From Verrucomicrobiales bacterium (GTDB lineage Bacteria > Verrucomicrobiota > Verrucomicrobiia > Verrucomicrobiales > SLCJ01): a DNA stretch of 64,000 bases. Location: NCBI GenBank assembly GCA_046075565.1, contig JBJTQJ010000052.1, positions 64,001 to 128,000 of the forward strand, given 5' to 3'. Positions within the stretch are counted from its first letter, which is position 1, and each line of letters begins with the position of its first letter. Below, one piece after another: positions 10,140 through 51,642 of this stretch. A program made the position numbers and the translations under genes. The notes under the pieces were generated by a model. It did no database searches, was not told the DNA's origin, and saw only the letters and a program-made list of their open reading frames with translations.

Positions 10140-11311
10140 ATGTCGCGTATACTCTGGATCACACGGCAAGACACCCGGCCACTTGATAGTGGCGAGTTAA
10201 TCTATTCCGGCGGATTGCTGCAATCGCTCGCCGCCACCGGACAATTCGAGATCACCGTGCTCGCGCACGATGCGAAGAAAAACGTGGCCGAGGGACCGGA
10301 CGTACACTGGAAGTTAACCGGCCCCATCCCGACCAACCGCTGGAAAGCAATGTTCACCAGTTGGCCCACGGATGCCTGGAGGTTGGGCAACGACCGATCC
10401 CGCGCCGCCTTGCGGCAACTGCTGGGCGAACAAATATGGGATTGGGTGGTCATCGACCAGGCCGCCTGTGCCTGGGCTTGGATGAACTCGCCGGCCACCG
10501 CTCCCGCTGGGGCAAACTCGCTTACATCGCCCACAACCGCGAAGCCGATGTGCGCCGGCAAATCGCTGCCGAGGGAGATGGCTCATGGCCGATGCGCATG
10601 GCCTTGCGATTGGATGCGAGCAAATACGCCGCCATGGAAGATCGTCTGGCCGCCGCAGTCGATCTCGTGACCGCCATCACTCCGCGTGATGAACAGCTTT
10701 TCCTGCAAGCACATCCCGGCAAGACCACCATCTTCCTGCCACCGGGTTATGTTGGCAATCCCCATGATGGACTGGGCCTGAATGCAGAAACCCCGGTCGC
10801 CGTCGTGCTTGCCGGGGCTTTCGAATGGCTCGCCAAACGCCGCAACCTCGAATCGTTCCTCACCGCCGCCACGCCTGTTTTCCCAAAGCAAGGCATAAGC
10901 TTCACCGTGGTTGGCAAAGCTCCGGACGGCTACTTCGATGCTCTGAAAGCGAAATTCCCATGGTGCGAATGCGCCTGCAATGTGCCGAGCATCGCACCAT
11001 GGCTCGACGGAACCCGCATCGGCCTCATTCCCGAAGCCCTCGATGGCGGGTTCAAAATCAAGGCCCTCGATTACATCTTCCGTGGACTGCCGGTCGCCGC
11101 CATCCGACCCGCCTTGAGCGGACTTCCCATCGACCCCAATTTTGATGCCATCGTCGCCGACGACCAAGATGGCCTCGTGCGCGCGATCGCAGAACGAATT
11201 CACGACATTGATTTCCTCACCCGCGCCGCAAACTCCGCGCTCGAGAAATGTCGTAACTCTTTCGACTGGAAGGATCGAGGCGTGGCGCTGGCCGGTGCGT
11301 TGCGGAGTTGA
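10140..11311 (+). pseudogene. GT4 glycosyltransferase split by a frameshift near 10478 (or sequence error)
   Basis: N-half in frame of 10140..10670 and C-half (YIAHN.E, GGFKIKALDY) in frame of 10361..11311; one extra base at GC-TT-G joins them. Confidence 0.75.
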
Positions 11312-12296: not shown

Positions 12297-12720
12297 GGGA
12301 ATCCAGCGCCTCTTTTGCGAGAGTTTGGATACGCGTCACCACGGATGCGAGTCCGTTCAGACGCGTCGGGGTGATCTGACGTTCCAGTTTCAAGCGGGCA
12401 GGCCAATCGAGATTGATGGCAGCCAATTCCCTGGCGGAACAACCATCCGCGAGCCGGACGGTCACGCCGACGAGTCCGCGCACCATGACGGAATCGGCGA
12501 GGACGCGAAAATGAAGGCTGGTGATATCACCATCCACCGCGAGATGAACCCTCGACACGCAACCGTGAACGCGGTTTGTTTCGGTACCGAGTGCTTCGGG
12601 AAGTTCGGTCGCTTTTTTCCCCCAATTCGCGAGCGCGCCCAATCGCTCCTGAGGATCCGGCAGTAGAAGCATGTCTTCCACCAACGTGTCCAAGCGGGCT
12701 TCGATTTCCATGCGGCTCAT
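12286..12720 (-). CDS. sufE: SufE family Fe-S sulfur acceptor
   Basis: VHGCVSRV, ADSVMVRGL, TPTRLNGL. Confidence 0.88.
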   Translation of the reverse strand: MSRMEIEARLDTLVEDMLLLPDPQERLGALANWGKKATELPEALGTETNRVHGCVSRVHLAVDGDITSLHFRVLADSVMVRGLVGVTVRLADGCSARELAAINLDWPARLKLERQITPTRLNGLASVVTRIQTLAKEALDSHVD

Positions 12721-13259
12721 GGTGCCAGCGCTTGTTCAATGGCCGCGATGACCTCCGGGCTCTCCGGTTTTTGTTTTGGCTCGAAACGGGCCAGTGGTTT
12801 CCCATCCTTCCCGATGAGGAATTTGCCGAAGTTCCACTTCACGTCACCGGGGAAAGCGCCATCCTTGCCGGTGAGGGCAGTATAAAGCGGATGCTGTTCC
12901 GCGCCCTTCACGTGGATTTTTTCCATGAGGGGAAAACTGACCTTGAAACGATTGCTGCAGAATTCCTGGATTTCCTCGGCGGTGCCGGGTTCTTGTCCTC
13001 CGAAGTCATTGCAGGGAAAAGCGATGACCGTGAAGCCCTTGGCGGAGAATCGCTGGTGAATTTTCTCGAGTTCCTCGTATTGCGGGGTCAGTCCGCATTT
13101 GGACGCGGTATTCACCACCAGCACCACCTTACCGCGATGGGCTGCCAGGCTGGTGCTCTCTCCGGTGATGGTTTTGAAGGGAATTTCGGCAAGGTCACCG
13201 GCCAGAGCGCAAACGCCGGAACCGAGAATGGCGAGGGTGGAAAGGAAAATGCGGATCAT
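12717..13259 (-). CDS. Glutathione peroxidase (Cys type, BtuE/Gpx family) with signal peptide
   Basis: VNTASKCGLTPQY, FPCNDFGGQEPG, KWNFGKFL. Confidence 0.92.
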   Translation of the reverse strand: MIRIFLSTLAILGSGVCALAGDLAEIPFKTITGESTSLAAHRGKVVLVVNTASKCGLTPQYEELEKIHQRFSAKGFTVIAFPCNDFGGQEPGTAEEIQEFCSNRFKVSFPLMEKIHVKGAEQHPLYTALTGKDGAFPGDVKWNFGKFLIGKDGKPLARFEPKQKPESPEVIAAIEQALAP

Positions 13260-13355
13260 AATGCCGAAGATACGCGTTCGGGAGCGGCCACGTTTCGCCG
13301 GAAATGGGAACATGGGTTACGTTGACGGTTCGTCCGTGAAGTTCGTGCGAACGCT

Positions 13356-14165
13356 TCACGGAACATTTTCGGAACGATGCGGGTTCCAGAAACCATTCTC
13401 CTCATCGGGGCCGAACCAGCCGAGGCCGGCAGCATCCGCGTCCCCGCCATGGGGGTTCTCACCGACCGCCCGGGTATTTTTTGGTTCGGCGGTCACGCGT
13501 CCATCGCACCAGGCGACGAGGGCTTTTCCATTCGCGCGGAAATGCACGGTGGGTGAGGGGCGTTGGCCGCTCGGACCGGCGCCGAAATCCCAGAAGGGCG
13601 GTTCGCAATAAGGGTATTCCTGAATTCCACCTTCGCGCGCGTAGGCCGTGGTCGCGAACATGACGGTGTGTGCGGGATTGCCGACACGGCCCGGATGTTC
13701 GGGAATCCGCAGGCCGCTCGCGCGGTCGAATTTTCCTCCCGGCCGGCCGCCGATGTATTGCGCGTTGTATCCATATCCCCCGGTGCCGGTTTCAAAACTC
13801 TCCTTGCCTTCGACCATGGCCGTGAGCAAAGGACAGGGTGTAATCTGACGCGATTTTCCCAGATAGGGGGCGAGGAATCCATCTTCCGGAGCAAATGCCT
13901 GACCTCCTTTGCGCGCGCCGTGCCAGCGCTTGTTGTTTGTCCGGTCATCGGCCGGAGCGAAGGTGCCGTGATCCGCGACATACAGCAGATTGGCGGCGGC
14001 CAGTTGCCCGAGGTTCTGGCTACTGCGTGCGATGCGGGCGCCTGTGACGGCTTTCTGCAAGCTTCCAAAACCAACAACCGCCAGCACCGCGATCACGACG
14101 AGCACGATGAGCAGCTCGACGAGCGTGAAGCCGGGGCGTCGGAAGTTGGCAGTTGGAAAATTCAT
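13356..14165 (-). CDS. Prepilin-type N-terminal cleavage/methylation protein with H-X9-DG-like C-terminus
   Basis: RRPG/FTLVELLIVLVVIAVLA; GGYGYN; HFRANGKALVAWCDGRV. Confidence 0.88.
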   Translation of the reverse strand: MNFPTANFRRPGFTLVELLIVLVVIAVLAVVGFGSLQKAVTGARIARSSQNLGQLAAANLLYVADHGTFAPADDRTNNKRWHGARKGGQAFAPEDGFLAPYLGKSRQITPCPLLTAMVEGKESFETGTGGYGYNAQYIGGRPGGKFDRASGLRIPEHPGRVGNPAHTVMFATTAYAREGGIQEYPYCEPPFWDFGAGPSGQRPSPTVHFRANGKALVAWCDGRVTAEPKNTRAVGENPHGGDADAAGLGWFGPDEENGFWNPHRSENVP

Positions 14166-15439
14166 CAGGGCGTAGTGGGCCGGACGGCGAGTCGGAAATG
14201 GGCGCTGGGAGAGGAAGGTAAGGGCAAAGTGACGGTTTGGCGACGGATAACTCCGATGCTGGCGATGGGTGAGGCCGAAACGTCGCCCAGAGTGGGGGAA
14301 AAGGGCGCGACGGGTTTGAATGCCCCGCCATCCGTGGAACGTGCGATGGTGTCCCAATCTTTGAGATTGAGGGAGCGTTGCACTTCCAGAACCAGTCCCC
14401 GGGCACGCGTGTCGCGGTTGAATTCCAGCACCACGGAGCCGTAGGTGATGTTGATGGACATCGCTGGTTCGTTTTCCCTTCGCGTCGGTTCGCGGCCGAG
14501 GGCAAACTCGAGGGCATTCGAACAACCATCATCATCCGCATCGACTAACCAGGCCGACGATTCGGACGGAATCTCTTTGATGCCGACCCATGTCGTGAAA
14601 TCAACCGGTGTCGAGATCCCGCCGATGGCTTCGAGGTCGAAACCACCCGAGCCGGTGGTGACCGATGGGTCGTAGATTGGCGATCCTTCGCTATCGAAAA
14701 ACTGCCCGGTGCCGGGAATATCGACGACCCGCACATGAGTGATGGCGTTGAGATTGACAGCCCCACTAACAACCACTGAATGCGACGTGAGTTGCGAAAG
14801 ATCAAACGGTGTGCCCCAGGAAATTCCGTAACCATTCGCGTGTTTGCCCGCGAGGTTGAAGACATTGGTGGCATTAAAGACTCCATAAGCGGTAATAGAC
14901 GATGTGCTCAACGAACGCGACGGAAACCGCGCGAAGACGTTGCCATTGCTCGACACCTCAATGTAGGCGAGTTCGCCGAAAATCTGGTTGCCACTCGAGA
15001 ATCCATTTTCAAAGACCGCGAGGTCGGCGCCGGGAAGATCGGCAATCGGACGCGCCAGGGTAATGGTGATGTGGCCGGGCAGGAAGCCGCTGGTGACCTG
15101 TGTGGCGGTCAAATCGCCGAGCGAAACGGTGTCGAGATAATGATCTCCGGTGACCGGGCCGAGGGCCCACTGGGGATCGTCATTCGTGTCGTCCCCCGGA
15201 TTCGCGCTTTCGTAGCTCACGACTTGATTCGCCCACGTGAAGAATAATGGATTCACCCGATTCGCGGCACCCGGTTCTCCATCGAGTCCGGTAGCACCTT
15301 CTCCATCCGGACCGATGAAGCCGGGAATTCCGGCGTCGGCTTTTGTAGGATCCGATCGTGGCCCGGAATACGGACCGGCGGCGGCCAATCCCGCAAGCAC
15401 CATGACCGAGCACGCAATGATATGAGAGGGTAATTTCAC
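14165..15439 (-). CDS. Secreted cell-surface protein, candidate cobalamin-binding
   Basis: Signal peptide; VSLGD, DLAVFENGF, ELAYIEVSSNG, GFDLEAIG; translationally coupled inside the riboswitch operon. Confidence 0.7.
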   Translation of the reverse strand: MKLPSHIIACSVMVLAGLAAAGPYSGPRSDPTKADAGIPGFIGPDGEGATGLDGEPGAANRVNPLFFTWANQVVSYESANPGDDTNDDPQWALGPVTGDHYLDTVSLGDLTATQVTSGFLPGHITITLARPIADLPGADLAVFENGFSSGNQIFGELAYIEVSSNGNVFARFPSRSLSTSSITAYGVFNATNVFNLAGKHANGYGISWGTPFDLSQLTSHSVVVSGAVNLNAITHVRVVDIPGTGQFFDSEGSPIYDPSVTTGSGGFDLEAIGGISTPVDFTTWVGIKEIPSESSAWLVDADDDGCSNALEFALGREPTRRENEPAMSINITYGSVVLEFNRDTRARGLVLEVQRSLNLKDWDTIARSTDGGAFKPVAPFSPTLGDVSASPIASIGVIRRQTVTLPLPSSPSAHFRLAVRPTTP

Positions 15440-16413
15440 GCGGAAATTCTCCGGCGGCGGATACCAAGCATGAAAACTCCGGCAAGGCCAAGAACGGCCG
15501 CGCCCGGTTCGGGAATCGGCAATGTCGAGAGAGGCGCATATCCATAGGAAACGGCATCACCGCTTCCAAAGCCCGCCCGATTCACCCAGCCGAGATACTC
15601 TGTTCCGCCATTCGTGAAGGTGGCTAGACTCGCGTAGTTGGAGTTGTTGAAACCGGGCGCGACGAGGGTTCCTGTCTCACTGGTGCCGAGATCGAGCACG
15701 CGGATGCCATTGATTTGATATCCGCTCGCGTAGAGCCGGTTGGTTGTCGAATCCACCGCCAGGTAACCACTCACGCCAAGATTCGCTACAAAAGTGCCGT
15801 TCGCGAGGGTGAGCGGCGTTCCTGCGATGGCCGTGGTGATTTGCGCGGCGGTATAGCGGTAGATGTTATTGTCGTTGGCATCGAGCCCGGCATGGGCGAG
15901 ATAGACATTTCCGACATCATCCATGGCGATGCCACCCGAGAAATCGGAGAACGCGGTAATCAGGGTTGTGATGGTGCCACCGGATGAAATGTGATAGAGA
16001 GCCGATGAACCGAATCCCTGCGAACCGACCATGAGCAAGGCGCCCGATCCGTAGTTGACGCCCGCATAAGGATTATTGGGCGGGGCTATCGCGGCGTTGA
16101 AAGTGGTGGCGGTATTCGTGCCGTCGTAACTTCGCGTGCCGGAGTTGGAATATCCGATGTGCGTGGAAGTGATGAAGCTTGAATCACCTGCTGGTGCGTT
16201 CGTGTAAGGAGTCGCCGTCGACGCTCCGAAAGTATCCTGCCGGATGAGGTTTCCGTTGTGGCCGTATACAAAACGACCGTCCGGCAGATGGCCAAGAGCG
16301 GTATTGGTGAAGTTTTGCGTATTCGGCAGGGGCAACACAGTCCATGACGCGCGGGCCGTGGAAACAAAACCGGCCGCGATGGCGGCCGCCAATACAAACA
16401 ATGATTTTTTCAT
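15436..16413 (-). CDS. PEP-CTERM sorting-domain protein, beta-propeller-like
   Basis: Signal peptide MKKSLFVLAAA; blade-like GGIAMDDVGNVY and GYLAVDSTTNRLY; C-terminal IPEPG-TM-RRRR. Confidence 0.88.
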   Translation of the reverse strand: MKKSLFVLAAAIAAGFVSTARASWTVLPLPNTQNFTNTALGHLPDGRFVYGHNGNLIRQDTFGASTATPYTNAPAGDSSFITSTHIGYSNSGTRSYDGTNTATTFNAAIAPPNNPYAGVNYGSGALLMVGSQGFGSSALYHISSGGTITTLITAFSDFSGGIAMDDVGNVYLAHAGLDANDNNIYRYTAAQITTAIAGTPLTLANGTFVANLGVSGYLAVDSTTNRLYASGYQINGIRVLDLGTSETGTLVAPGFNNSNYASLATFTNGGTEYLGWVNRAGFGSGDAVSYGYAPLSTLPIPEPGAAVLGLAGVFMLGIRRRRISA

Positions 16414-16483
16414 GTGGTGTCCTTTGCAAAGACGGGGTGGATGAAAAGGACAATCCTTTTCCCCGAATGCGAAAGGACTACCC

Positions 16484-16612
16484 CCGCACGGACGTTTTCG
16501 CGACGCCGTTGTCCATTTCAGGACGGTGCGGTTTTCTCCGCCGGTTCGAACCCGGACTTTGACCTTTGCGCGACAGTGAGGGACTTTCACCCTGCTTTCC
16601 TAGGCCGGCGGA
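16484..16612 (-). promoter_or_regulatory. Cobalamin riboswitch (short/variant class)
   Basis: Minus strand TCCGCCGG..AGGAAAGCAGGGTGAAAGTCCCTCACTGTCGCGCAAAGGTCAAAGTCCG..CCGGCGGA; L5 UCGCG is complementary to the CGCGA loop of a downstream hairpin. Confidence 0.88.
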
Positions 16613-16801
16613 TTGGTTGGATAATGGAAAGATCGAATCGAAACCGCAGGCGGCTTCGTTGGTGACAAGATGCTTTAGGATACACGGGTCGTCAAGTATC
16701 GGATTCCTTCAAATCTCCCGTCAAAGTCGGCGAATCCAAATATCCAACGAATCCGGCAGATCCCGGGGTGGCAAGCGCCCGGCCGCCGCGTATGGTGGGG
16801 C

Positions 16802-17560
16802 ATGACATCTGCAGTGGAGCCCAATCCGGCGCGTCGCCGCCCCACCTTCATCCAGGTGGCCCTCATGGTTTTGCCGATTGGCACGGTCGTGCTGGGAACC
16901 ATCGCCATGCTCTGGTATTTCCACGAAGGTTCACGCCCGGGAGCAAAGGAAGAACGCGGCCTTTACACCAAGGAACCAACGGCGGCTTCCATTCGTGACA
17001 GCGTGCGGAAACTCTCCCTGCCCCCGTTGGCGGTGCGCGGGGAAGCCACGGAAGCCGGTGGAGTAGGCTGGCAGGCGACGATGAGTTTGATCGAAGGCGC
17101 GACTGGCGAAACGAACATGGGTTATCAACCGGTCCTGCATGAATACGACTCCGGCGCCGGAAAATGGCGGCATCTCTGGGTGGACAACTCCGGCAAACGC
17201 AACCTCACCGAGATCATCGAGGTGCGGGCACGCAGCGTCCCGACCGGCAATCGCGAGGGACTGGCGGTGCATTTGCCCATCGCGGTGGCCCTCGAACTGG
17301 CCCAAGCCTTTGCGGGTACGGAAAATCGACGCACCATACGTTTTGTTTTTCTCGGCGGAGGTCAGGATCCGACGGGCGAGCAATCCTATGCCGAGTTGAT
17401 GAAAGACCGGCGCATCAAGGTGCAGGGGGTTTTTGATCTCGATGCCTCGGATTTCCGCGCCGCCGCCTGCCTCGATGCCTCCGGCCAAATCGACGATACC
17501 GCTCTCATGCGGGAGGTGGAAAACCTGCGGCAGAATATCCGGCGCGCCGCCAACCAGTGA
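16802..17560 (+). CDS. Membrane-anchored protein with degenerate M28 peptidase-like fold
   Basis: One TM helix; IAVALELAQAF...RRTIRFVFL, but no HxD or DD metal ligands. Confidence 0.55.
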   Translation: MTSAVEPNPARRRPTFIQVALMVLPIGTVVLGTIAMLWYFHEGSRPGAKEERGLYTKEPTAASIRDSVRKLSLPPLAVRGEATEAGGVGWQATMSLIEGATGETNMGYQPVLHEYDSGAGKWRHLWVDNSGKRNLTEIIEVRARSVPTGNREGLAVHLPIAVALELAQAFAGTENRRTIRFVFLGGGQDPTGEQSYAELMKDRRIKVQGVFDLDASDFRAAACLDASGQIDDTALMREVENLRQNIRRAANQ

Positions 17561-44711: not shown

Positions 44712-47204
44712 TCAGGGCGAGATGGAAGCGGCATTCACCGAGGAAGCATTGAGCGGGCGACCGGATGGATCGAGCACACGCACGGTGAGGAAAATCATCA
44801 GGGCCTTCCGTGAACTCTTGCGGGCATTTGATTTGAAAAGACGTCCCAGGATCGGAGCATCCCCGAGAATCGGGACCTTGTCGTTGATGGTCTCGGACTG
44901 TTCCCCGAGCATACCACCGACAAAAATGGTCTGGCCATCGTAAACACTGGTGCTCGTCTTGAGGTGGCGGGTCTCAAAGATCGGCTGGATGATCCTGTTT
45001 TCAGTGATGATAATGCTTGTCGGACGGCCGAGACCATCTATGGCGCCGGAGGTAATCGGGGTGCCGTAATTGACGAAGCCGATGAACTCGCGGTGGGTGA
45101 TATCCATGTTCACTTCCACGAGTTTTTTATCGGCGGAAACAACAGGATCCACTTCGAGAATGGAGCCGACAGGTTTGGAGTCGAAGGCGGCCGGGTTCGC
45201 CGGGGTAACAGGGAAAGTGGTCACCGTGGCCGGACTCAAGAGACCACCGCCGCCGCCACCACCAAGCGCATCGTTGCCGACGGAGTTGGGCAACTCCGGC
45301 GGATCAAACTCGGTCGGGTAGATGAAATCGCGAATCACCTCGATGCGGGCGGGCAGACCACTGCGCGTGGTCACCGTCGGCGCGTTGAGGAAGTCGGTGC
45401 CTTTGGCTTGGGAAATCGCGCGGATGACGACTTGGAAATTCGGCTCGGACAACGCACCGGCGATGGAAAGAATTCCTGGCGCGCGCAGCACACCTTGCGC
45501 GAGTTTGCTGGCGTCCTGCACATCGAGCAGGCGGTCGAGATTCCGTCCGGTGAAAGCGGTATCACCGCTCCGGTTGCCCGCGGTCACCGGGTTCGATCCG
45601 ACTGGTCCTCCGCCGGGATAATTGAAAGGATACGTGTTGGGCGCGAGCATTCCCGGGCCGGTGCCCCCGGCAACCGCCACACCATTCGATCCGGTGAAGG
45701 CACCGAGCAACCAGTCGAAACCGAGTTCGCGCGCGGTTAATTCATTCACCTCGAGCATCTTGGCCTCGATGGTCACCTGGGGATTGATGTTGGACCTCGC
45801 CGCTTCGATCATGCCCTCCAGCATCTCGTGATTGGCCTGGGAGCTCCGCATGGTCACCGTGCTCGTGCGGGGGTCGAAATTCGCACTCGCCCCCTCCGGG
45901 AATGTCAAACCGGTCTGCTCCAAAAATGTTTTCGCGGAAAGCCTTTGCAGTGCCAAACCACCGCCGCCCGGATTTCCGAAGGGATCACCCGCATCGCCAC
46001 CGGCTTGGGTTGGCACATTGGAAATGAAATCCGGGGGAACATCATAGGTCCGCGTGTAAAGCGAGGCATTCGCCGATGCCGGGGGCACGAGCACCACGGC
46101 AAATGGCTCGACCACCACGGCGAGCCCGGCTTGTTCGGCCAGATAACGCAGCACCGCTTCCAATGGCACGTCGGTGAGGCGGAGATTGATCTCGCGATTG
46201 ATCACCTGCTGGGCGAACGGCTCGTCCAAAGAACCGATGCGCAGAATCACGCTCACGCCGCGTGCTTCACCCTCTTTCGCACCACGATCCAACATGCGGG
46301 CTTTGGAGACGACGGTCTGCAACGCATCGCGGATATCAACTCCTTCGAGCGCGATGTTGTCGATCTGAATCTCGCGCAGTTTCTTGCCGATGGCATCACG
46401 AGCCGCCACCTCGGTGACCTGCCCTTGGGCCTGCGCAACGGTGGCGCGCACGGCGGCGGCGTTTGCCTCGGGGTTTTCCGACGTCCATCCTTGGTCCACC
46501 TGCCGGAGCATGCGGGCCCGGCTGTGGTTGTAGGCGGCACCGGCATACTCGATGATGGCGCCTTCGACTTTTTCCATGCCCTCGCGGGCCGCGACATTGT
46601 AACGATCAATCCGCAGAACTTCTTCGTAGGTGGCGCGGGCTTCATCAAAGCGTCCGAGATTGTAGTGCGATTCCGCGAGCGTGAGCAAACGCAGGACTTC
46701 CTTGCGGTTGGCCGCCAGTTCCGGAGAGTTCGCGGGAGGATAACGCACGGGATCCTGGATCTCGGCCAAAAGGCGTTTGGCAGGACGGTTGTCCGGATCC
46801 ATATCAACGGCCAGAACCCGATCGAGCAACGTTTTGGCTTCGGGGTAGCTGCCCGCGCTCGCCAGACGACCGGCTTCCTCGGTGGCAATCTCCGAAAAAG
46901 TATCGCGGGCGGCCGCACGGGTGGCGAGAGTCATGGGCGACTGCGGCAAGGAAGCACGCGCGGCCGCGAGTTTGTCGAGAGCGATGGCGACTTCCCCCTT
47001 CGCGGCCAATTCTCGTGCCTCAATGGTGGCGGCATCGGCCGCCCGGGTCGCATTGGCGCGTTTCTCGGCCTCGATTTCCGCCATTCCCGCGATGGAATGC
47101 GGGCCGGAATCCGCGATCGGACCAGCCACGACGGCGCACCAAGAGGCGCCCAAGAAAAGGGCAACCAGGAGGTTTCGGGATCGGGTCGTGGGTCTGGGTT
47201 TCAT
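44712..47204 (-). CDS. Type II/IV secretin (GspD/PilQ family, Amuc_1098-like) with TPR N-terminus
   Basis: QVTIEAKMLEV, ELGFDW, APTVTTRSG, KVPILGDAPILGRLF. Confidence 0.9.
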   Translation of the reverse strand: MKPRPTTRSRNLLVALFLGASWCAVVAGPIADSGPHSIAGMAEIEAEKRANATRAADAATIEARELAAKGEVAIALDKLAAARASLPQSPMTLATRAAARDTFSEIATEEAGRLASAGSYPEAKTLLDRVLAVDMDPDNRPAKRLLAEIQDPVRYPPANSPELAANRKEVLRLLTLAESHYNLGRFDEARATYEEVLRIDRYNVAAREGMEKVEGAIIEYAGAAYNHSRARMLRQVDQGWTSENPEANAAAVRATVAQAQGQVTEVAARDAIGKKLREIQIDNIALEGVDIRDALQTVVSKARMLDRGAKEGEARGVSVILRIGSLDEPFAQQVINREINLRLTDVPLEAVLRYLAEQAGLAVVVEPFAVVLVPPASANASLYTRTYDVPPDFISNVPTQAGGDAGDPFGNPGGGGLALQRLSAKTFLEQTGLTFPEGASANFDPRTSTVTMRSSQANHEMLEGMIEAARSNINPQVTIEAKMLEVNELTARELGFDWLLGAFTGSNGVAVAGGTGPGMLAPNTYPFNYPGGGPVGSNPVTAGNRSGDTAFTGRNLDRLLDVQDASKLAQGVLRAPGILSIAGALSEPNFQVVIRAISQAKGTDFLNAPTVTTRSGLPARIEVIRDFIYPTEFDPPELPNSVGNDALGGGGGGGLLSPATVTTFPVTPANPAAFDSKPVGSILEVDPVVSADKKLVEVNMDITHREFIGFVNYGTPITSGAIDGLGRPTSIIITENRIIQPIFETRHLKTSTSVYDGQTIFVGGMLGEQSETINDKVPILGDAPILGRLFKSNARKSSRKALMIFLTVRVLDPSGRPLNASSVNAASISP

Positions 47205-47278
47205 CCTCAAGCGATATTCGCAGTGATCGAACTCTGAACAAAGCCTTTTCTTTCCTCCAACGCAAGCCGCTCTTGCGC

Positions 47279-49180
47279 CTATTTTTCAGGTGATTTGGAT
47301 TCCGGGATCCAACGGTAAATGCGGTTGTCGTGCACCGGGCTTTCGAGCGCCCAGGCGGTGTAGGCCAGCTCGAAGCGCCCGCCATGCTCGACAAAATCGA
47401 GAACCTCGGGGTGGGTGGACCGGGCTTTCGACTCATGGCCGACATAGAGAAACAGCTTTTTCCCCTCCCCATCGGCCTTGGCACCGGCCTCCCGGACCTG
47501 TTCCAAGGAATCCGCCCAGCGCACGAGCGGGTCGTAGGTCACGGCGTCGCTCCAGAGGTCCAGGGTCACCACTTCCTTGTCGAAATTCGGAAAATCCCCG
47601 CCCCGGGCCAAGCGGACCAGCTCGCGCCCATCGGATTTTCCATGTTTCCAGAAGACCAGAATCGCGGAGACCGACGAAATGGCGAAAACGCAAGCGACCG
47701 CCCCCGCGAGCCAGCGTCCGCGACCGCGTGCACCCCCAAGACCCAGCCCGGCCAACACAATCATGCCCGGGAGGGCGGGAAGGGCATACCACCAGAGCAG
47801 GACATTTGCCGACAACACCGAGCGGAGGTAAAGCGGCACCAGCGAGAAAAAATGCAGCAGGGCCAACACCAGAACCACTTTGCCGACAGTGGATTTTTTC
47901 CACGCCACCCAGCACCCCCACCCCGCTAGCAGATAAAACGCGATAGCCCCGGCGGTCCGCAGCGGGGAATGGACCGCCCCGGGATTGACGGGATTTTCCC
48001 AATCGGCCAATCCCCATCCACAGCCGTTGCCGAGGAAAAACAAGGTGTCCCGCCACCATCCGGGGGGAATCGTGCCGACCATGGCGGGGTTACTTTGGAG
48101 CTGCTCGCGCAGTTGAATCATGCCGGGAGTAAGCACCAGACCGGCCGCTAAAGCTGCGAGCAATCCGCCGCCGGCCCAGCGCGTCAGATGATGCACCGCC
48201 TCGCGGCGGCCACCGATGATCCGCCATCCTGCCAGCATGAGAAAGATGCCCCCTTGGCCCAAAGCCACTGCGATCAAGGAGCCGGGATTGGCCCACATCG
48301 CGACCAACTGGCACATTCCATGCCCGACCCACGCGCTCCAGCGTCCGGACTGCAATGCGGCAAGCAGGAAAACATACCCGGCCATAATCGCCATGATCAT
48401 GATGCTGTAGCCCCGCGCCTCCGTGCTGTAGCGCACATGCCATGGATGGATGGCGAGAAGAAGGGCCATGGCAAATCCGGCCGAAGGACTCCCCATGCGC
48501 GCCCCGACCAAACCGGCGAGCAGAATCGTGGCCAGCCCAGCCAACAGAGGCGGCACCCGCGTCGGCCACTCTTTCACCATGCCATCCGGAGCCCCGGCGG
48601 CTTTTTTCCACGTGTCGTGGCCCACACGAGCGAGGATACTGTAGAGAAAGCCATTGTTGCCGGTGGAATTGCGGAAGGCGGTCTCCGCCCAACGCGGTTG
48701 GCGGAATTTTTCACCCTTTTCCCCGCAGTTTTTCCATTCTCCGGCGATGATGCGCACGTAGTTGTGCGATTCGTCGTTGTAGAGCGAATGGCCCATGCGG
48801 GGCAAACGGAGTCCGAGACCTAACAACAACGTGAGCAAAATCGCCGGCCAAAACCAGCGCGGGTGCGCGGGCGGATGCTCCAACAACCCAGGCAATTCCG
48901 ACGGGCCGATCCACCCCGGCTGATCGAGTTTGGAAAAAAGCCCGGCGCTCGCCGAGGCGAGAGCCGCCACCACCGCGACCGCCACCCCACTCCACCAGAG
49001 GCAGGTGGCCGCCATCGGCTCCACCCGTATTTTCCCCGCTCCTTCAACGGATGCCGCGGCCTCGGCCCAAGCCGTGCGGGCATCGCTGTTGGCAATCAAA
49101 ATACCCGCCACCAGCAAGGCCACTCCTCCCGCCACGATGGCCGCACGGTGGTTGCGGGCTCGGAAGTTCGTTGGGCCCAT
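47279..49180 (-). CDS. Multi-pass GT-C glycosyltransferase (PMT/ArnT-like); start uncertain
   Basis: LRL...SLYNDE; HVRYSTEARGYS; many TM helices. Confidence 0.75.
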   Translation of the reverse strand: MGPTNFRARNHRAAIVAGGVALLVAGILIANSDARTAWAEAAASVEGAGKIRVEPMAATCLWWSGVAVAVVAALASASAGLFSKLDQPGWIGPSELPGLLEHPPAHPRWFWPAILLTLLLGLGLRLPRMGHSLYNDESHNYVRIIAGEWKNCGEKGEKFRQPRWAETAFRNSTGNNGFLYSILARVGHDTWKKAAGAPDGMVKEWPTRVPPLLAGLATILLAGLVGARMGSPSAGFAMALLLAIHPWHVRYSTEARGYSIMIMAIMAGYVFLLAALQSGRWSAWVGHGMCQLVAMWANPGSLIAVALGQGGIFLMLAGWRIIGGRREAVHHLTRWAGGGLLAALAAGLVLTPGMIQLREQLQSNPAMVGTIPPGWWRDTLFFLGNGCGWGLADWENPVNPGAVHSPLRTAGAIAFYLLAGWGCWVAWKKSTVGKVVLVLALLHFFSLVPLYLRSVLSANVLLWWYALPALPGMIVLAGLGLGGARGRGRWLAGAVACVFAISSVSAILVFWKHGKSDGRELVRLARGGDFPNFDKEVVTLDLWSDAVTYDPLVRWADSLEQVREAGAKADGEGKKLFLYVGHESKARSTHPEVLDFVEHGGRFELAYTAWALESPVHDNRIYRWIPESKSPEK

Positions 49181-49245
49181 GGCGGGTGCTTTCGGAAAAC
49201 CAAAAACGCCCGCCGCGAGGGGCGGCGGGCGTTTTTTGAGCGGAA

Positions 49246-51579
49246 TCACTTCGTCTTGAAGTGAATCGAGGTGCGCCATTGGCTCCCCTCGGGGAAGCGG
49301 CGCAGGGTCATCGAATCCATCGTCGAGACCGTGTCGATGACCTCGCGGATGGTGTTTTCTTCGGAAAGAAACTCCTCGCGGGAAGAATCATCGGGGAACA
49401 CCGTGCTGGCGTTGTTCTTCGCCAGGTCGAGCCACTCGAGCGCCGTCTTGGTCAGCGGGTCGAAGCGCATTTTCAGGACCAGACCACGGGGAGCATTGGC
49501 GTCGGGTTTGGCGGCGGCCAGTTTGCCAGCCAGCATCTCCGAGAAGTTCTTCGACGTGCTGAGGAAGAAATACTTCTCGCTGATGGAAGCGGAGGGCAGG
49601 AAGTCGTCGTTGGTGAAGCCGCTGACCGGATACGAGAAGGTCTTCAAGCCGAGGCTTTCTTTCTCGCTGATCGACGGGTCGGGCAGATTGATCCTCGAAT
49701 CTTCCGGCATGGGCAGGGCGGCGAGCATGCCTTTGATGGCGGGCTCCATTTCCTTCCAGCCTTCGGTGATGAGGGCGCGGTTCACAACCGGGCGCAAAAG
49801 GGCCATACGCGGGACGCGGCCTTTGGTGAGCGCTTCCGGCAATCCGGGGAATTTCGGAATGGGAGCACCCATATCCATCACGAACGCGCTCTCGGAATCC
49901 ACCGCCCCGCCGATCTTGCCACGGGCCGCTTTCCAAAGGGCCGTCACATGTGGAAGCATCTTGTCGCGGAAGAGAGTGAACTGCTCGGCCATGCCCGCTT
50001 CCTTGCCGGGTTCGCTTTCGGCATAGCGATGACCGAGTTCGTAACCGATTTCGGCGAGATCCTCGAGCAGATCCACCACTTTGCTGGTGTAGTTTTTGTC
50101 AGCACGGGTGTGGATGGCCAACATGGTATCTTCGCTGTCGAGGGCATTCGCGAAAGCCAGAGGCACGCTCGCGTCGAGGTCGGGGCTGTCGGCACCGCCG
50201 AGGCCTTCGAAGCGGACACCATTTTCAAACCAGCCCGCGCCGCAGAAAGCGGTGTCGGTGCCACGGGCGAGTTCGGTGAGCGTCTTGCCGGCTTTTTCCA
50301 CCAGGGCAATCACATCGCGCAAGTCGCCCATGGATTTGATCTCGCCGAGCACACCCGTGGCCATATCGGAAAGCCAAGAGTAATCGGCCGAAGCGCGGAA
50401 ACTCTTGTTCACTTCCTCGGCAGCCATGAGCACGAGGAACGGATTTTTGCCTTTCGCTTCACCCAACATCGAAAACTCCGGGCGCGCGGCCATGGATTCG
50501 TCTGGCTTATCCGTGAATTTGAGGGCTTCCGGATTGGGTGCGAGGAACAGCACGAGCGATTCGCCGCGCAGGCCGAAGCCGAAGCTGACTTGCTTCTTGA
50601 TCAAGGCCGCGTGCAGCTTCTCGATTTGCGCTGGTTCGAGGTCCTCGCTCATGCCCTCGCGCATGTCGTCGATACTGATCATCTCCGCCGCCTTGACGGT
50701 GAACGAGACGAACTTTCCGCCGCCCATTTCTTTTTCTTCCTTCACGACAAAGGGCGGAATTCCTTCGGACATCTCGCTGTTCCACGAAGCCAGCATCTCC
50801 TGAACCTTGTCGGCCTTGCCTTTGGCTTCCACGGCGATATAAAGCATCGGGGGGTCCATCTTCTCGACGCTTTCAAGAATCACGTCGAAGTTTTTCTTCA
50901 GCACGTCGGTCATCGGGTTCACGTATGCATCGCTGGTATCCTCGATGAGACCCTGTTCCTGGGCCATCTGGACCAACGCCGTGCGATAGGTGGTGGCGTT
51001 GACCAAGTTCATCAGTTTGAGGAGTTGGGTAGTCTGGGTGCCGGTGCCGGGACCGGTGGCGACCGTCAGCTTGCCGCTGGTGAACATGTCGAAATATTCA
51101 CCGGCTTCCGTGCCAACCCCGACCGGGCTGTCATCCGGGGCTACCGCCGGCCCGTCGGCAGGGGAAGGTTCGCCATCGGGTGTCGTGGGAGCGGCGGGAG
51201 CGGCCGCCGCGGGTGCGGGCAGATCTCCTTCGCCGATGCCCATTTCTTCTTTGGCTTTTTTCCACAACTCGGTCCCTTCCAGCTTTTTCTTCACCTGGCC
51301 GAGGTCGAACATCACCAGCGTCTCGAAGTCCTTCGAGAGCCCGGCACCATGCCCAATCAACGGGGCGATTTCCGCAGCGCTGACCGAAGGTTTCGGAGCC
51401 TCCGGCGCTGGAGCGGGGGCCGGGGTTCCTGGTGTGGTAGCGGGGGCCGTGCTGACGGGTGCGGCAGCGGTTTCGTTGCCCGGAGGCGGAGTTGCGGCTG
51501 GTTCCTTTTTGCCGCATGATGGAATGACTGCCAGCGTAAAAGCCGCCAGCGCAAGTGGGATTAGTTTATTTCTTTTCAT
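49246..51579 (-). CDS. Large hypothetical lipoprotein
   Basis: Lipobox IPSC followed by a Pro/Ala linker; long ORF with coding-like third-position bias. Confidence 0.8.
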   Translation of the reverse strand: MKRNKLIPLALAAFTLAVIPSCGKKEPAATPPPGNETAAAPVSTAPATTPGTPAPAPAPEAPKPSVSAAEIAPLIGHGAGLSKDFETLVMFDLGQVKKKLEGTELWKKAKEEMGIGEGDLPAPAAAAPAAPTTPDGEPSPADGPAVAPDDSPVGVGTEAGEYFDMFTSGKLTVATGPGTGTQTTQLLKLMNLVNATTYRTALVQMAQEQGLIEDTSDAYVNPMTDVLKKNFDVILESVEKMDPPMLYIAVEAKGKADKVQEMLASWNSEMSEGIPPFVVKEEKEMGGGKFVSFTVKAAEMISIDDMREGMSEDLEPAQIEKLHAALIKKQVSFGFGLRGESLVLFLAPNPEALKFTDKPDESMAARPEFSMLGEAKGKNPFLVLMAAEEVNKSFRASADYSWLSDMATGVLGEIKSMGDLRDVIALVEKAGKTLTELARGTDTAFCGAGWFENGVRFEGLGGADSPDLDASVPLAFANALDSEDTMLAIHTRADKNYTSKVVDLLEDLAEIGYELGHRYAESEPGKEAGMAEQFTLFRDKMLPHVTALWKAARGKIGGAVDSESAFVMDMGAPIPKFPGLPEALTKGRVPRMALLRPVVNRALITEGWKEMEPAIKGMLAALPMPEDSRINLPDPSISEKESLGLKTFSYPVSGFTNDDFLPSASISEKYFFLSTSKNFSEMLAGKLAAAKPDANAPRGLVLKMRFDPLTKTALEWLDLAKNNASTVFPDDSSREEFLSEENTIREVIDTVSTMDSMTLRRFPEGSQWRTSIHFKTK

Positions 51580-51642
51580 GGTCTGGGAGGAAATGCGTCT
51601 AAGCATGCCCGTCTAGCCCGTCATCGTCAAGCAGGGATCCCG

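Follow-up and report, generated by a model that had tools for sequence, protein, structure and literature searches.

How B12 is brought into the cells of a bacterium that seems to depend on it, and that has no obvious importer, is the question raised by a small operon of a Verrucomicrobiales bacterium (assembly GCA_046075565.1). Passage of the vitamin across the cell envelope is known in Proteobacteria, through BtuB-BtuF-BtuCD, and in gut Bacteroidota, which have extra surface binders; riboswitch-controlled surface B12 binders (BtuG, BtuH, BtuJ and BtuK) are established in Bacteroides. To our knowledge it is not known for the Planctomycetota-Verrucomicrobiota-Chlamydiota (PVC) phyla, which are widespread in soil, freshwater, marine and gut habitats. 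The operon lies in a stretch of 64,000 nt from contig JBJTQJ010000052.1 (positions 64,001–128,000, forward strand), hereafter the window, and consists of a short cobalamin aptamer followed by three overlapping genes for proteins that we call P0001, P0002 and P0003. We put at roughly 0.72 the probability that it is a module for corrinoid acquisition, repressed by B12 and equipped with a dedicated pilin-like protein; both corrinoid binding and transport are predicted.

Operon features are given in window positions, and the whole operon lies on the minus strand. The first gene (15436–16413) encodes P0001, a protein of 325 residues with a signal peptide, an NHL-type six-bladed beta-propeller and a PEP-CTERM tail. 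The second (14165–15439), which has a GTG start, encodes P0002, whose 424 residues comprise a signal peptide, a BtuH-like beta-sandwich (~64–276) and an immunoglobulin-like (Ig-like) domain (~326–424), and the third (13356–14165) encodes P0003, 269 residues with a prepilin-type leader and an enlarged pilin-fold head. The junctions are a GTGA overlap between the genes for P0001 and P0002 and a TGATG overlap between those for P0002 and P0003. An earlier note on this DNA had described a cobalamin riboswitch before three coupled genes with these same overlaps, and the aptamer match and the gene ends agree with that description. It had also stated that the window contains no TonB receptor, BtuF/CD or B12 enzyme, and none is present among the 47 window open reading frames (ORFs) scanned with Pfam.

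Because operon control by cobalamin is central to the argument, we begin with the RNA. No match at the Rfam gathering level was obtained anywhere in the window, and a permissive scan of positions 16200–17100 placed the AdoCbl-II family (RF01689) at 16538–16611 (minus strand, 35.0 bits, E 2.3e-6). The match, short and class-II-like, is full length (model positions 1–81 of 81), and the distance from the aptamer to the ATG of gene 1 is 125 nt. Comparison with the Rfam covariance models, which the earlier note had proposed, thus returned a full-length and conserved element that stays under the gathering score (35.0 versus 36.5 bits). A leader segment of ~100 nt shows a mean identity of 94% in four other loci (L005, L007, L008 and L016), the P0002 homologues of which are merely 45–48% identical to the window protein. 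Such near-identity of leaders in genomes with far more divergent proteins argues that the aptamer is not a chance match. A covariance model built from these five leaders (R1) led to a sixth copy, in L028; made from near-identical sequences, R1 is narrow and detects the window-type aptamer alone (six copies, and elsewhere one weak match). In an alignment of the six leaders (A6), the whole conserved leader covers window positions 16448–16616 (minus strand) and consists of the aptamer plus ~90 nt of extra conserved stems, the putative expression platform. RNAalifold predicted 53 pairs on A6; compensatory changes are seen in 6, and every one of these 6 lies 3' of the aptamer.

Eighteen further leaders, namely L102 and L091 (at gathering score for RF01689 and RF01482, respectively) and 16 loci from a profile of our own, share the core (CUGUCGCGCAA..., AGUC...) as well as the P4 stem, which covaries: among 20 leaders, pair 43:57 reads CG in 10, UA in 5 and AU in 3, and pair 45:55 reads GC in 12 and CG in 6. 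The window aptamer therefore resembles class-II/AdoCbl-variant riboswitches (RF01689, clan CL00101) in covering the whole 81-position model and in sharing the CUGUCGCGCAA and AGUCC core of leaders that reach the RF01689 or RF01482 gathering score, but it has GGAAAGC where its relatives have GUGAAU, and its leader adds the ~90 nt of conserved structure after the aptamer. In the host genome (3.9 Mb) it is the sole cobalamin-type element found with RF00174, RF01689 and our nhmmer cobalamin profile, RF01482 not having been searched genome-wide: RF00174 gave no match, with 150 of 419 first-look candidates scored, RF01689 gave the window aptamer and one chance-level match (17.1 bits), and the nhmmer profile gave none.

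The last conserved hairpin of the leader offers a plausible switch. Its 5' arm contains a candidate anti-Shine-Dalgarno segment, GTCCTTT (16472–16478, minus strand), which is complementary to the Shine-Dalgarno region AAAGGAC of gene 1 (16419–16425, minus strand; ATG at 16413–16411). Perfect complementarity of 7–10 nt, ending 5–7 nt before the ATG, is found in all six leaders, and the two segments covary, being GTCCTTT/AAAGGAC in the window and L028 and of the TTTCTTC/GAAGAAA type in the other four. This pairing suggests translational control by masking of the gene 1 ribosome-binding site.

We then asked how far the association with cobalamin riboswitches extends, using as a comparison set 80 fetched loci encoding P0002 relatives. 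RF00174 at gathering score lies upstream on the coding strand in 34 of the 51 loci scanned (by batch, 6/16, 12/12, 7/12 and, for an outgroup of Planctomycetota, Kiritimatiellia, Lentisphaerales and one cyanobacterium, 9/11), and matches of 44–114 bits occupy the corresponding position in orthologous operons. Permissive mode adds L079 (100.7 bits), L052 (45.6 bits) and L018 (39.3 bits), the last missed by the Rfam fast filters at gathering level, and gives 30.9 bits for L061; the R1 search contributes the window-type aptamer in five more loci. In total, 65 loci have at least 1500 nt of upstream DNA, and in 49 of them a same-strand cobalamin element lies no more than 3 kb upstream. Ten of these 49 rest on our nhmmer profile alone. 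The profile was trained on 37 Rfam matches from the same loci, so matches to the training loci are circular and only the additional loci count; one nhmmer match, in L006 (E 1e-20), was not reported by Rfam at E ≤ 0.001 and is unconfirmed.

The genes behind the riboswitch also form a recurring set. Of the assessable Verrucomicrobiota loci, 41 of 44 have a P0003 homologue after the P0002 homologue, at a distance of no more than 2 kb (L027, where the P0003 homologue is split in two pieces, being counted as lacking it); the figures are 6 of 9 for Planctomycetota, 1/1 each for Kiritimatiellia and Lentisphaerales, and 0 of 12 for Cyanobacteria. In L011, from the cultured Chthoniobacter flavus Ellin428, a riboswitch, a first gene and both a P0002-like and a P0003-like gene are present. 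The earlier note had made its case depend on linkage to cobalamin riboswitches across Verrucomicrobiota and Planctomycetota, which the 49 of 65 loci bear out, and the P0002–P0003 pair is kept in both phyla. Where the gene next to the riboswitch was examined (27 loci), it encodes a DUF4465 protein in 14, usually with a PEP-CTERM tail, and a different PEP-CTERM protein in nine; DUF4465 also fills the slot in L016, one of the loci with the window-type aptamer. Eight divergent members of DUF4465, the BtuJ family, bind B12, among them proteins of the Verrucomicrobiota Coraliomargarita akajimensis and Haloferula luteola (PMC13398666, in which neither pilins nor PEP-CTERM nor these phyla are named). 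P0001 is like the BtuJ/DUF4465 jellyrolls (PF14717) in occupying the first slot behind the riboswitch and in its PEP-CTERM anchor, but it is an NHL propeller and not a jellyroll, and PF14717 matches nothing in the host genome.

Three loci display further combinations. In L071 (1696–8671, Lentisphaerales), one riboswitch precedes a TonB-dependent receptor gene, and a second precedes a gene for a 1,071-residue protein with two DUF4465 domains and a P0002-like domain, followed by a DUF1559-type prepilin gene, so that the locus unites capture, BtuH-like and pilin parts with a classical receptor. A gene for a BtuF-like binding protein adjoins the prepilin gene in L081, from a Verrucomicrobiia metagenome-assembled genome (MAG); a few kb downstream of its B12 operon lies an Acido-Lenti-1 RNA (10611–10656, plus strand, 42 bits, gathering score 37). 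In the cyanobacterium Capilliphycus (L054:5055–10014), a riboswitch is followed by genes for a DUF1636 protein, a P0002-like protein, a 218-residue protein and MetE. Genes for P0002-like proteins also occur on contigs labelled Syntrophus (L041), Methanobacteriota (L044), Methanosarcina (L050), Alphaproteobacteria (L052) and Gracilibacteria (L064); their high identity to PVC or cyanobacterial versions (44–53%) suggests that the contigs are contaminants or were mis-binned, and that the labels do not give the true hosts.

The earlier note had assigned the part of a B12-binder-like protein to the propeller, but the resemblance to a known B12 binder lies in the product of gene 2, not in that of gene 1. 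P0002 matches no Pfam or NCBIfam family and has more than 2,096 homologues, and its N-terminal domain (~255 residues) is also present in Planctomycetota, Kiritimatiellia, Lentisphaerales and Cyanobacteria. Its AlphaFold2 model (mean predicted local distance difference test score, pLDDT, 73) contains two beta-sandwich domains after 63 disordered residues. When the N-terminal domain was compared with 48,161 chains by VIA-align, rank 1 was 7biz_B, which is BtuH2 (Z 11.9, root-mean-square deviation 3.4 Å; 155 residues aligned, chain residues 317–592, 16% identity), and rank 2 was 8blw_B, a lipoprotein bound to BtuB1 (residues 392–660, Z 10.4). The structure comparison with BtuH that had been suggested earlier thus yields BtuH chains as the best matches. 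A profile of 26 diverse P0002 N-terminal domains (A4), searched against 177,635 PDB sequences, had as its top match 8blw_B residues 394–497 at a borderline E of 0.022; this was the sole PDB sequence near significance, and the region is the same as in the structural match. Foldseek with the whole P0002 model retrieved only generic two-domain beta-sandwiches (template modelling score ≤ 0.26) and was uninformative. The fold and the borderline profile match connect P0002 to BtuH, and we regard the N-terminal domain as BtuH-like, with the same fold and probably a remote common origin. As that fold is the one of the BtuH B12-binding domain, P0002 probably binds corrinoids.

In 7BIZ, the structure of BtuH2, it is the C-terminal domain that binds B12, and in BT1490 a BtuH domain is fused to a BtuG propeller; in passages of the papers that describe them, BtuH is reported only from gut Bacteroidota and three Firmicutes (PMC13616437, PMC8941943). 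P0002 shares with the BtuH proteins of Bacteroides thetaiotaomicron (BtuH2/BT1956, 7BIZ; BT1490, 8BLW chain B) a B12-riboswitch-controlled locus, and with BtuH2 the union of a binding-type domain and an Ig-like domain in one protein. The differences are that identity is merely 16–17%, that P0002 has a plain signal peptide and BtuH a lipoprotein signal, that the Ig-like domain is C-terminal in P0002 and N-terminal in BtuH2, and that the P0002 family is found in PVC phyla and Cyanobacteria. Five residues are invariant in the family (E144, N145, D240, D268 and E270). Between the two domains, residues 297–318 (window ~14486–14551) form a conserved acidic motif, D-x-D-x-D-G ... N-x-L-E-Y/F-A-x-G, which resembles a calcium-binding or dockerin-like repeat; a planctomycete homologue (L078) has a Dockerin_1 match at the corresponding place.

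Gene 1 had been described as encoding a PEP-CTERM propeller akin to BtuG, and the first half of this description holds. As read from the sequence, the P0001 tail PIPEPGAAVLGLAGVFMLGIRRRRISA consists of PIPEP, a hydrophobic stretch and RRRR; PF07589 (PEP-CTERM) matches 12 of 17 family members, P0001 itself not being matched at E ≤ 0.1. The family is small, with 18 proteins in 5.8 billion clusters. Its profile finds NHL six-bladed propellers (Pizza6, E 4.6e-9; PknD, E 3.5e-7), and the nearest ESM-Atlas clusters to P0001 are NHL and PEP-CTERM proteins. For BtuG there is no sequence link: neither PF16819 (BtuG) nor PF14717 (DUF4465) was matched in the Pfam scan of P0001, and 8blw_B was not among the matches of the family profile to PDB sequences at E ≤ 10. 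We therefore rejected P0001 as a homologue of BtuG, a YncE-type seven-bladed propeller, at the sequence level, since PF16819 is lacking and the NHL six-bladed type is found instead. By analogy, P0001 is probably the outermost capture or docking protein, because its slot holds DUF4465 B12 binders in related operons.

P0003 is a pilin-like protein. It exceeds the cut-offs of two prepilin motif models (N_methyl PF07963, 29.9 versus 21.2 bits; TIGR02532, 29.2 versus 16.3 bits), and its model (pLDDT 89.5) shows a long helix at residues 15–66 with a beta head of enlarged size. All of the ten best structural matches are to pilins or pseudopilins, at low Z (5.8 to 3.5), including PilA4 (5.8), EpsG (4.6), ComP (4.4), PilV (4.1) and PulG (3.8); Foldseek with the P0003 model returned nothing at E ≤ 0.001. 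Of the earlier label "prepilin/H-X9-DG", the prepilin part is upheld by motif and fold, and the H-X9-DG part is not: the spacing is H208-X12-D221-G222, conserved in the family alignment, and P0003 was not listed for PF07596 (DUF1559) or TIGR04294 at E ≤ 0.1, which together rule out strict membership of the H-X9-DG/DUF1559 family. PF07596 does match some relatives of P0003 (L059; L071, first part only; and the pilin-like genes of L094–L097). P0003 has the pilin fold of ComP, the DNA-binding competence pilin of Neisseria (PDB 5HZ7), which we take to be a pilin that binds a substrate destined for the periplasm. A likeness in mechanism to such an uptake pilin is our hypothesis by analogy; the substrate of P0003 would be a vitamin and not DNA, and its head is about twice as large.

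Relatives of P0003 lead beyond the operon. In an even sample of 101 Verrucomicrobiota genomes, with tables of gene places and cross-tabulations read by hand, 18 have a P0002-like domain, 44 a P0003-like gene (E ≤ 1e-20) and 73 Peripla_BP_2. Eleven genomes have the P0003-like gene next to a P0002-like one, and 17 have it at most 3 kb from a BtuF-like Peripla_BP_2 gene; both arrangements occur in genome G065. From the latter we fetched 14 pilin-btuF loci, picked for closeness of the two genes. In these the pilin-like gene is followed by Peripla_BP_2, with FecCD next in 8 of the 14 (L091–L097 and L100) and an ABC (ATP-binding cassette) ATPase also in 6 of these 8; in L093 stop and start codons overlap. 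In other Verrucomicrobiota families, relatives of P0003 thus sit just upstream of BtuF-like genes, for which reason we dropped the idea of P0003 as a general substitute for a missing BtuF. In L092 (7339–9165) and L093 (7338–9164), a gene for a fused homocysteine S-methyltransferase/methylenetetrahydrofolate reductase comes after the pilin-btuFCD genes on the same strand, which ties the operon to methionine synthesis.

Cobalamin leaders are found here as well. In three of the 14 loci, Rfam at gathering level places an aptamer immediately before the pilin-like gene (RF00174 in L101, RF01482 in L091 and RF01689 in L102), and our own profile recognizes a core there, in the orientation of the gene, in 12 (all but L089 and L100). 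Among further strong P0003-like genes without a P0002- or BtuF-like neighbour, 7 of 16 have a cobalamin leader; these solitary pilin genes with an aptamer core directly upstream are in L103, L104, L105, L107, L111, L115 and L116. Several genomes hold 3–7 P0003-like paralogues. From gene order and leaders we infer that P0003 belongs to a subfamily dedicated to B12 import.

The distribution of a BtuB model points in the same direction. At E ≤ 1e-10, TIGR01779 matches 58 of the 101 genomes. Of the genomes with a P0003-like pilin gene, 13 have a receptor match and 31 have none; of those without the pilin gene, 45 have a match and 12 have none. The two families richest in pilins have no match (f12, TIGR01779 0/16 and pilin 16/16; f19, 0/10 and 9/10), whereas families in which every genome has one hold few pilins (f2, TIGR01779 9/9 and pilin 0/9; f5, 11/11 and 1/11; f6, 5/5 and 1/5; f17, 5/5 and 0/5). 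None of the 17 genomes with pilin–BtuF adjacency is matched by TIGR01779. As the sampled genomes are related to one another, we offer no statistical test.

Does the host need such a system? Its genome, which comprises 129 contigs (3.9 Mb) and has a marker-gene completeness of 100%, encodes a MetH equivalog (1781.5 bits, cut-off 1497), methylmalonyl-CoA mutase and a B12-binding radical-SAM protein. Full-length MetE was not found by tblastn, which gave two weak partial matches only, and profile searches of the genome found no CbiC, CbiD or CobS for corrin synthesis. Because MetH is present and neither full-length MetE nor corrin synthesis genes were found, the host must import B12. Genes for the import itself were sought in the same genome: Peripla_BP_2 (BtuF) and DUF4465 gave no match, FecCD gave two weak ones (33–34 bits), and tblastn with the TonB receptor of L071 and the BtuF-like protein of L081 found nothing. 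A second TonB receptor gene of the host is a fragment interrupted by a TGA stop and does not reach the BtuB cut-off. Judged from its gene content, the host appears to need ready-made cobamide and to be without a textbook importer. A prepilin peptidase is present (Peptidase_A24, contig C119). Compared with BtuB-BtuF-BtuCD of E. coli, the task is alike, namely riboswitch-controlled import of B12 across two membranes, and relatives of P0003 are co-operonic with BtuF-, BtuC- and BtuD-like genes, but the host is without a BtuB equivalog and BtuF and has a pilin-like gene where the receptor gene is expected.

Taken together, these data favour a B12-repressed acquisition module, and a working model can be drawn up in which ligand binding, the off-switch mechanism, the protein locations and the direction of hand-over are what we infer. 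When B12 is scarce, the leader would permit translation, and when it is plentiful the operon would be off: ligand binding would let the pyrimidine-rich segment pair with the gene 1 ribosome-binding site, and the overlapping start and stop codons would pass the block to genes 2 and 3. The same translational coupling would supply the three proteins in a fixed ratio. P0001 would be displayed at the surface by the PEP-CTERM/exosortase route, and P0002 would leave the cytoplasm by the Sec route and bind corrinoid through its BtuH-like domain. P0003, processed by prepilin peptidase and anchored by its N-terminal helix, would bridge the outer membrane and the inner-membrane step by carrying or guiding the vitamin, either as a relay anchored in the membrane or as part of a fibre that runs through the secretin, and would take over at least part of the role of BtuB. 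The proposal of corrinoid capture with a pseudopilin made in the earlier note is to this extent sustained, by the riboswitch linkage, the DUF4465 slot, the BtuH-like fold and the pilin-btuF operons, and it has lost BtuG and H-X9-DG as its supports. A more far-reaching version, which we hold only tentatively and think rather doubtful, is that a PVC pilin-like subfamily replaces BtuB altogether: a pilus or pseudopilus fibre extending through a secretin would receive corrinoid from binders at the surface (BtuH-like, DUF4465 or propeller proteins) or bind it directly through the pilin, and retraction or relay would deliver it to BtuF-BtuCD or another carrier.

Several observations weigh against the acquisition module. 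The aptamer scores 35.0 bits, 1.5 below the RF01689 gathering score of 36.5, and 16 of the 65 loci have no detectable riboswitch; these are four from Verrucomicrobiota (L042, L043, L047 and L056), L044 (an archaeal-labelled MAG) and 11 from Cyanobacteria or cyanobacteria-like sources. For P0002, generic CBM32/discoidin folds come close behind the BtuH chains (Z 10.1 and below), and neither the whole-protein profile (A1) nor the second-half profile (A8) found BtuH in the PDB, their matches being chance-level ones to a DARPin and a copper superoxide dismutase. Its N-terminus, VKLPSHIIACSVMVLAGLAAAG/PYSG as read from the sequence, has no lipobox cysteine at the cleavage site, unlike BtuH. For P0001, a relation to a known B12 binder could not be detected. 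The host retains one full TonB receptor, of siderophore type (TIGR01779, 50 bits against a cut-off of 599.7), and its inner-membrane step for B12 is without an assigned carrier. In the pilin-btuF loci, 9 of the 12 leader matches come from our own profile without Rfam confirmation, and 9 of the 16 orphan P0003-like genes have no cobalamin leader, so that the link to B12 is not exclusive in the pilin family at large. Finally, TIGR01779 is a mere proxy for TonB-dependent receptors, and the inverse relation between pilin and BtuB model holds at family level among related genomes, in which observations are not independent.

These points lend some weight to other explanations, the most serious of which gives P0003 a role in secretion alone: as a minor pseudopilin specific to its cargo, it would help a type II secretion system (T2SS) to export P0001 and P0002, and would neither contact B12 nor take part in its import. 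Such a role would suit its pilin fold and prepilin leader, the presence of a secretin and a prepilin peptidase, its co-regulation with the presumed cargo, and the lack of a membrane anchor on P0002, which must leave the periplasm to act at the surface. It does not suit the pilin-btuF(CD) operons, which encode no secreted capture protein, or the solitary pilin genes that stand behind a cobalamin leader (7/16). Moreover, the pilin-btuF genomes have no BtuB-model match, and it is for this reason the import step, not the export step, that is missing in them. We judge a pure export role to be unlikely.

The operon might instead be B12-repressed and yet serve some need that arises under B12 lack, such as attachment to B12 producers. 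As metE and other B12-independent enzymes are controlled by cobalamin riboswitches, such control by itself fails to separate uptake from bypass genes; the P0002-like gene of L054 is in one operon with metE, and P0001 resembles a generic surface propeller. Set against this are the best structural matches of P0002, which are B12-binding domains, the DUF4465 binders, TonB receptor and BtuF-like genes of orthologous operons, the joining of the pilin subfamily to btuFCD-type genes, and a host that has MetH and no full-length MetE or corrin synthesis genes that could be found and must import the vitamin. A function other than uptake seems to us less probable still than a pure export role. Least credible of all is that the RNA is a chance or decayed match that senses no cobalamin, preceding ordinary constitutive surface proteins. 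The score below the Rfam threshold and the lack of a gathering-level match in the window would permit this, but five leaders from divergent genomes with a mean identity of 94%, a sixth copy, RF00174 at 44–114 bits in the corresponding position of orthologous operons and covarying stems leave it scarcely any room.

Three features seem to be novel: a large family of BtuH-like proteins beyond Bacteroidota and Firmicutes, a PEP-CTERM mode of display and, above all, a riboswitch-controlled pilin-like component that is co-operonic with btuFCD-type genes in genomes without a BtuB-model match. In open-access PMC papers and bioRxiv preprints, we found no paper linking pilins or DUF1559 to cobalamin (the supplementary neighbourhood data of PMC13398666 lying outside this search). 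In the same literature, work on H-X9-DG, DUF1559 and SBP_bac_10 shows no ligand in title or abstract start, and the relevant BtuH papers found are all on Bacteroides. The P0002 family, with more than 2,000 members, would extend the BtuH B12-binding fold to PVC phyla and Cyanobacteria, and the pilin-like subfamily with btuFCD-type genes would give one branch of the expanded PVC prepilins its first functional clue. What makes the window operon worth pursuing is that it is controlled by the sole detectable B12 riboswitch of a predicted B12 auxotroph, and that many sampled Verrucomicrobiota genomes are likewise without a BtuB-model match. Were the fibre version true, it would describe the first pilus-type machine to import a vitamin, and would for the first time assign a ligand and a function to a branch of the PVC prepilins, a very large expansion that is uncharacterised.

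A membrane protein of the DUF6580 family is associated with several of these loci. Its gene adjoins the riboswitch on the upstream side, in divergent orientation, in seven loci (L011, L015, L017, L018, L026, L031 and L052), and a database protein of 607 residues (P0055) consists of DUF6580 joined to a P0002-like protein. The single host copy (C25:93559–94104, L083) lies beside the gene for porphobilinogen synthase. DUF6580 is not mentioned in the PMC and bioRxiv literature searched. By its genomic associations the protein is a candidate inner-membrane carrier.

The surroundings of the operon contain a few other features. About 85 nt upstream of the aptamer is a promoter-like site, TTGACG/18-nt spacer/GATACT (16695–16724, minus strand); it is the sole one in 12500–16900, where 1.6 are expected by chance, and is weak, so that position alone fits. 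A glutathione peroxidase gene (12717–13313, minus strand) begins 42 nt 3' of the P0003 gene with no terminator-like site between them. Its best NCBIfam model is PRK10606 (183.7 bits, under the cut-off of 270), the model of the BtuE-type peroxidase encoded in btuCED of E. coli; in related loci (e.g. L011 and L035) other genes come after the P0003 homologue, and the adjacency may be coincidence. Farther away, about 28 kb from the operon, lies a gene for a secretin-domain protein with tetratricopeptide repeats (44712–47210, minus strand), followed by two long ORFs without Pfam matches (47279–49279 and 49246–51606). The secretin-domain protein may be a component of a pilus or secretion outer-membrane channel.

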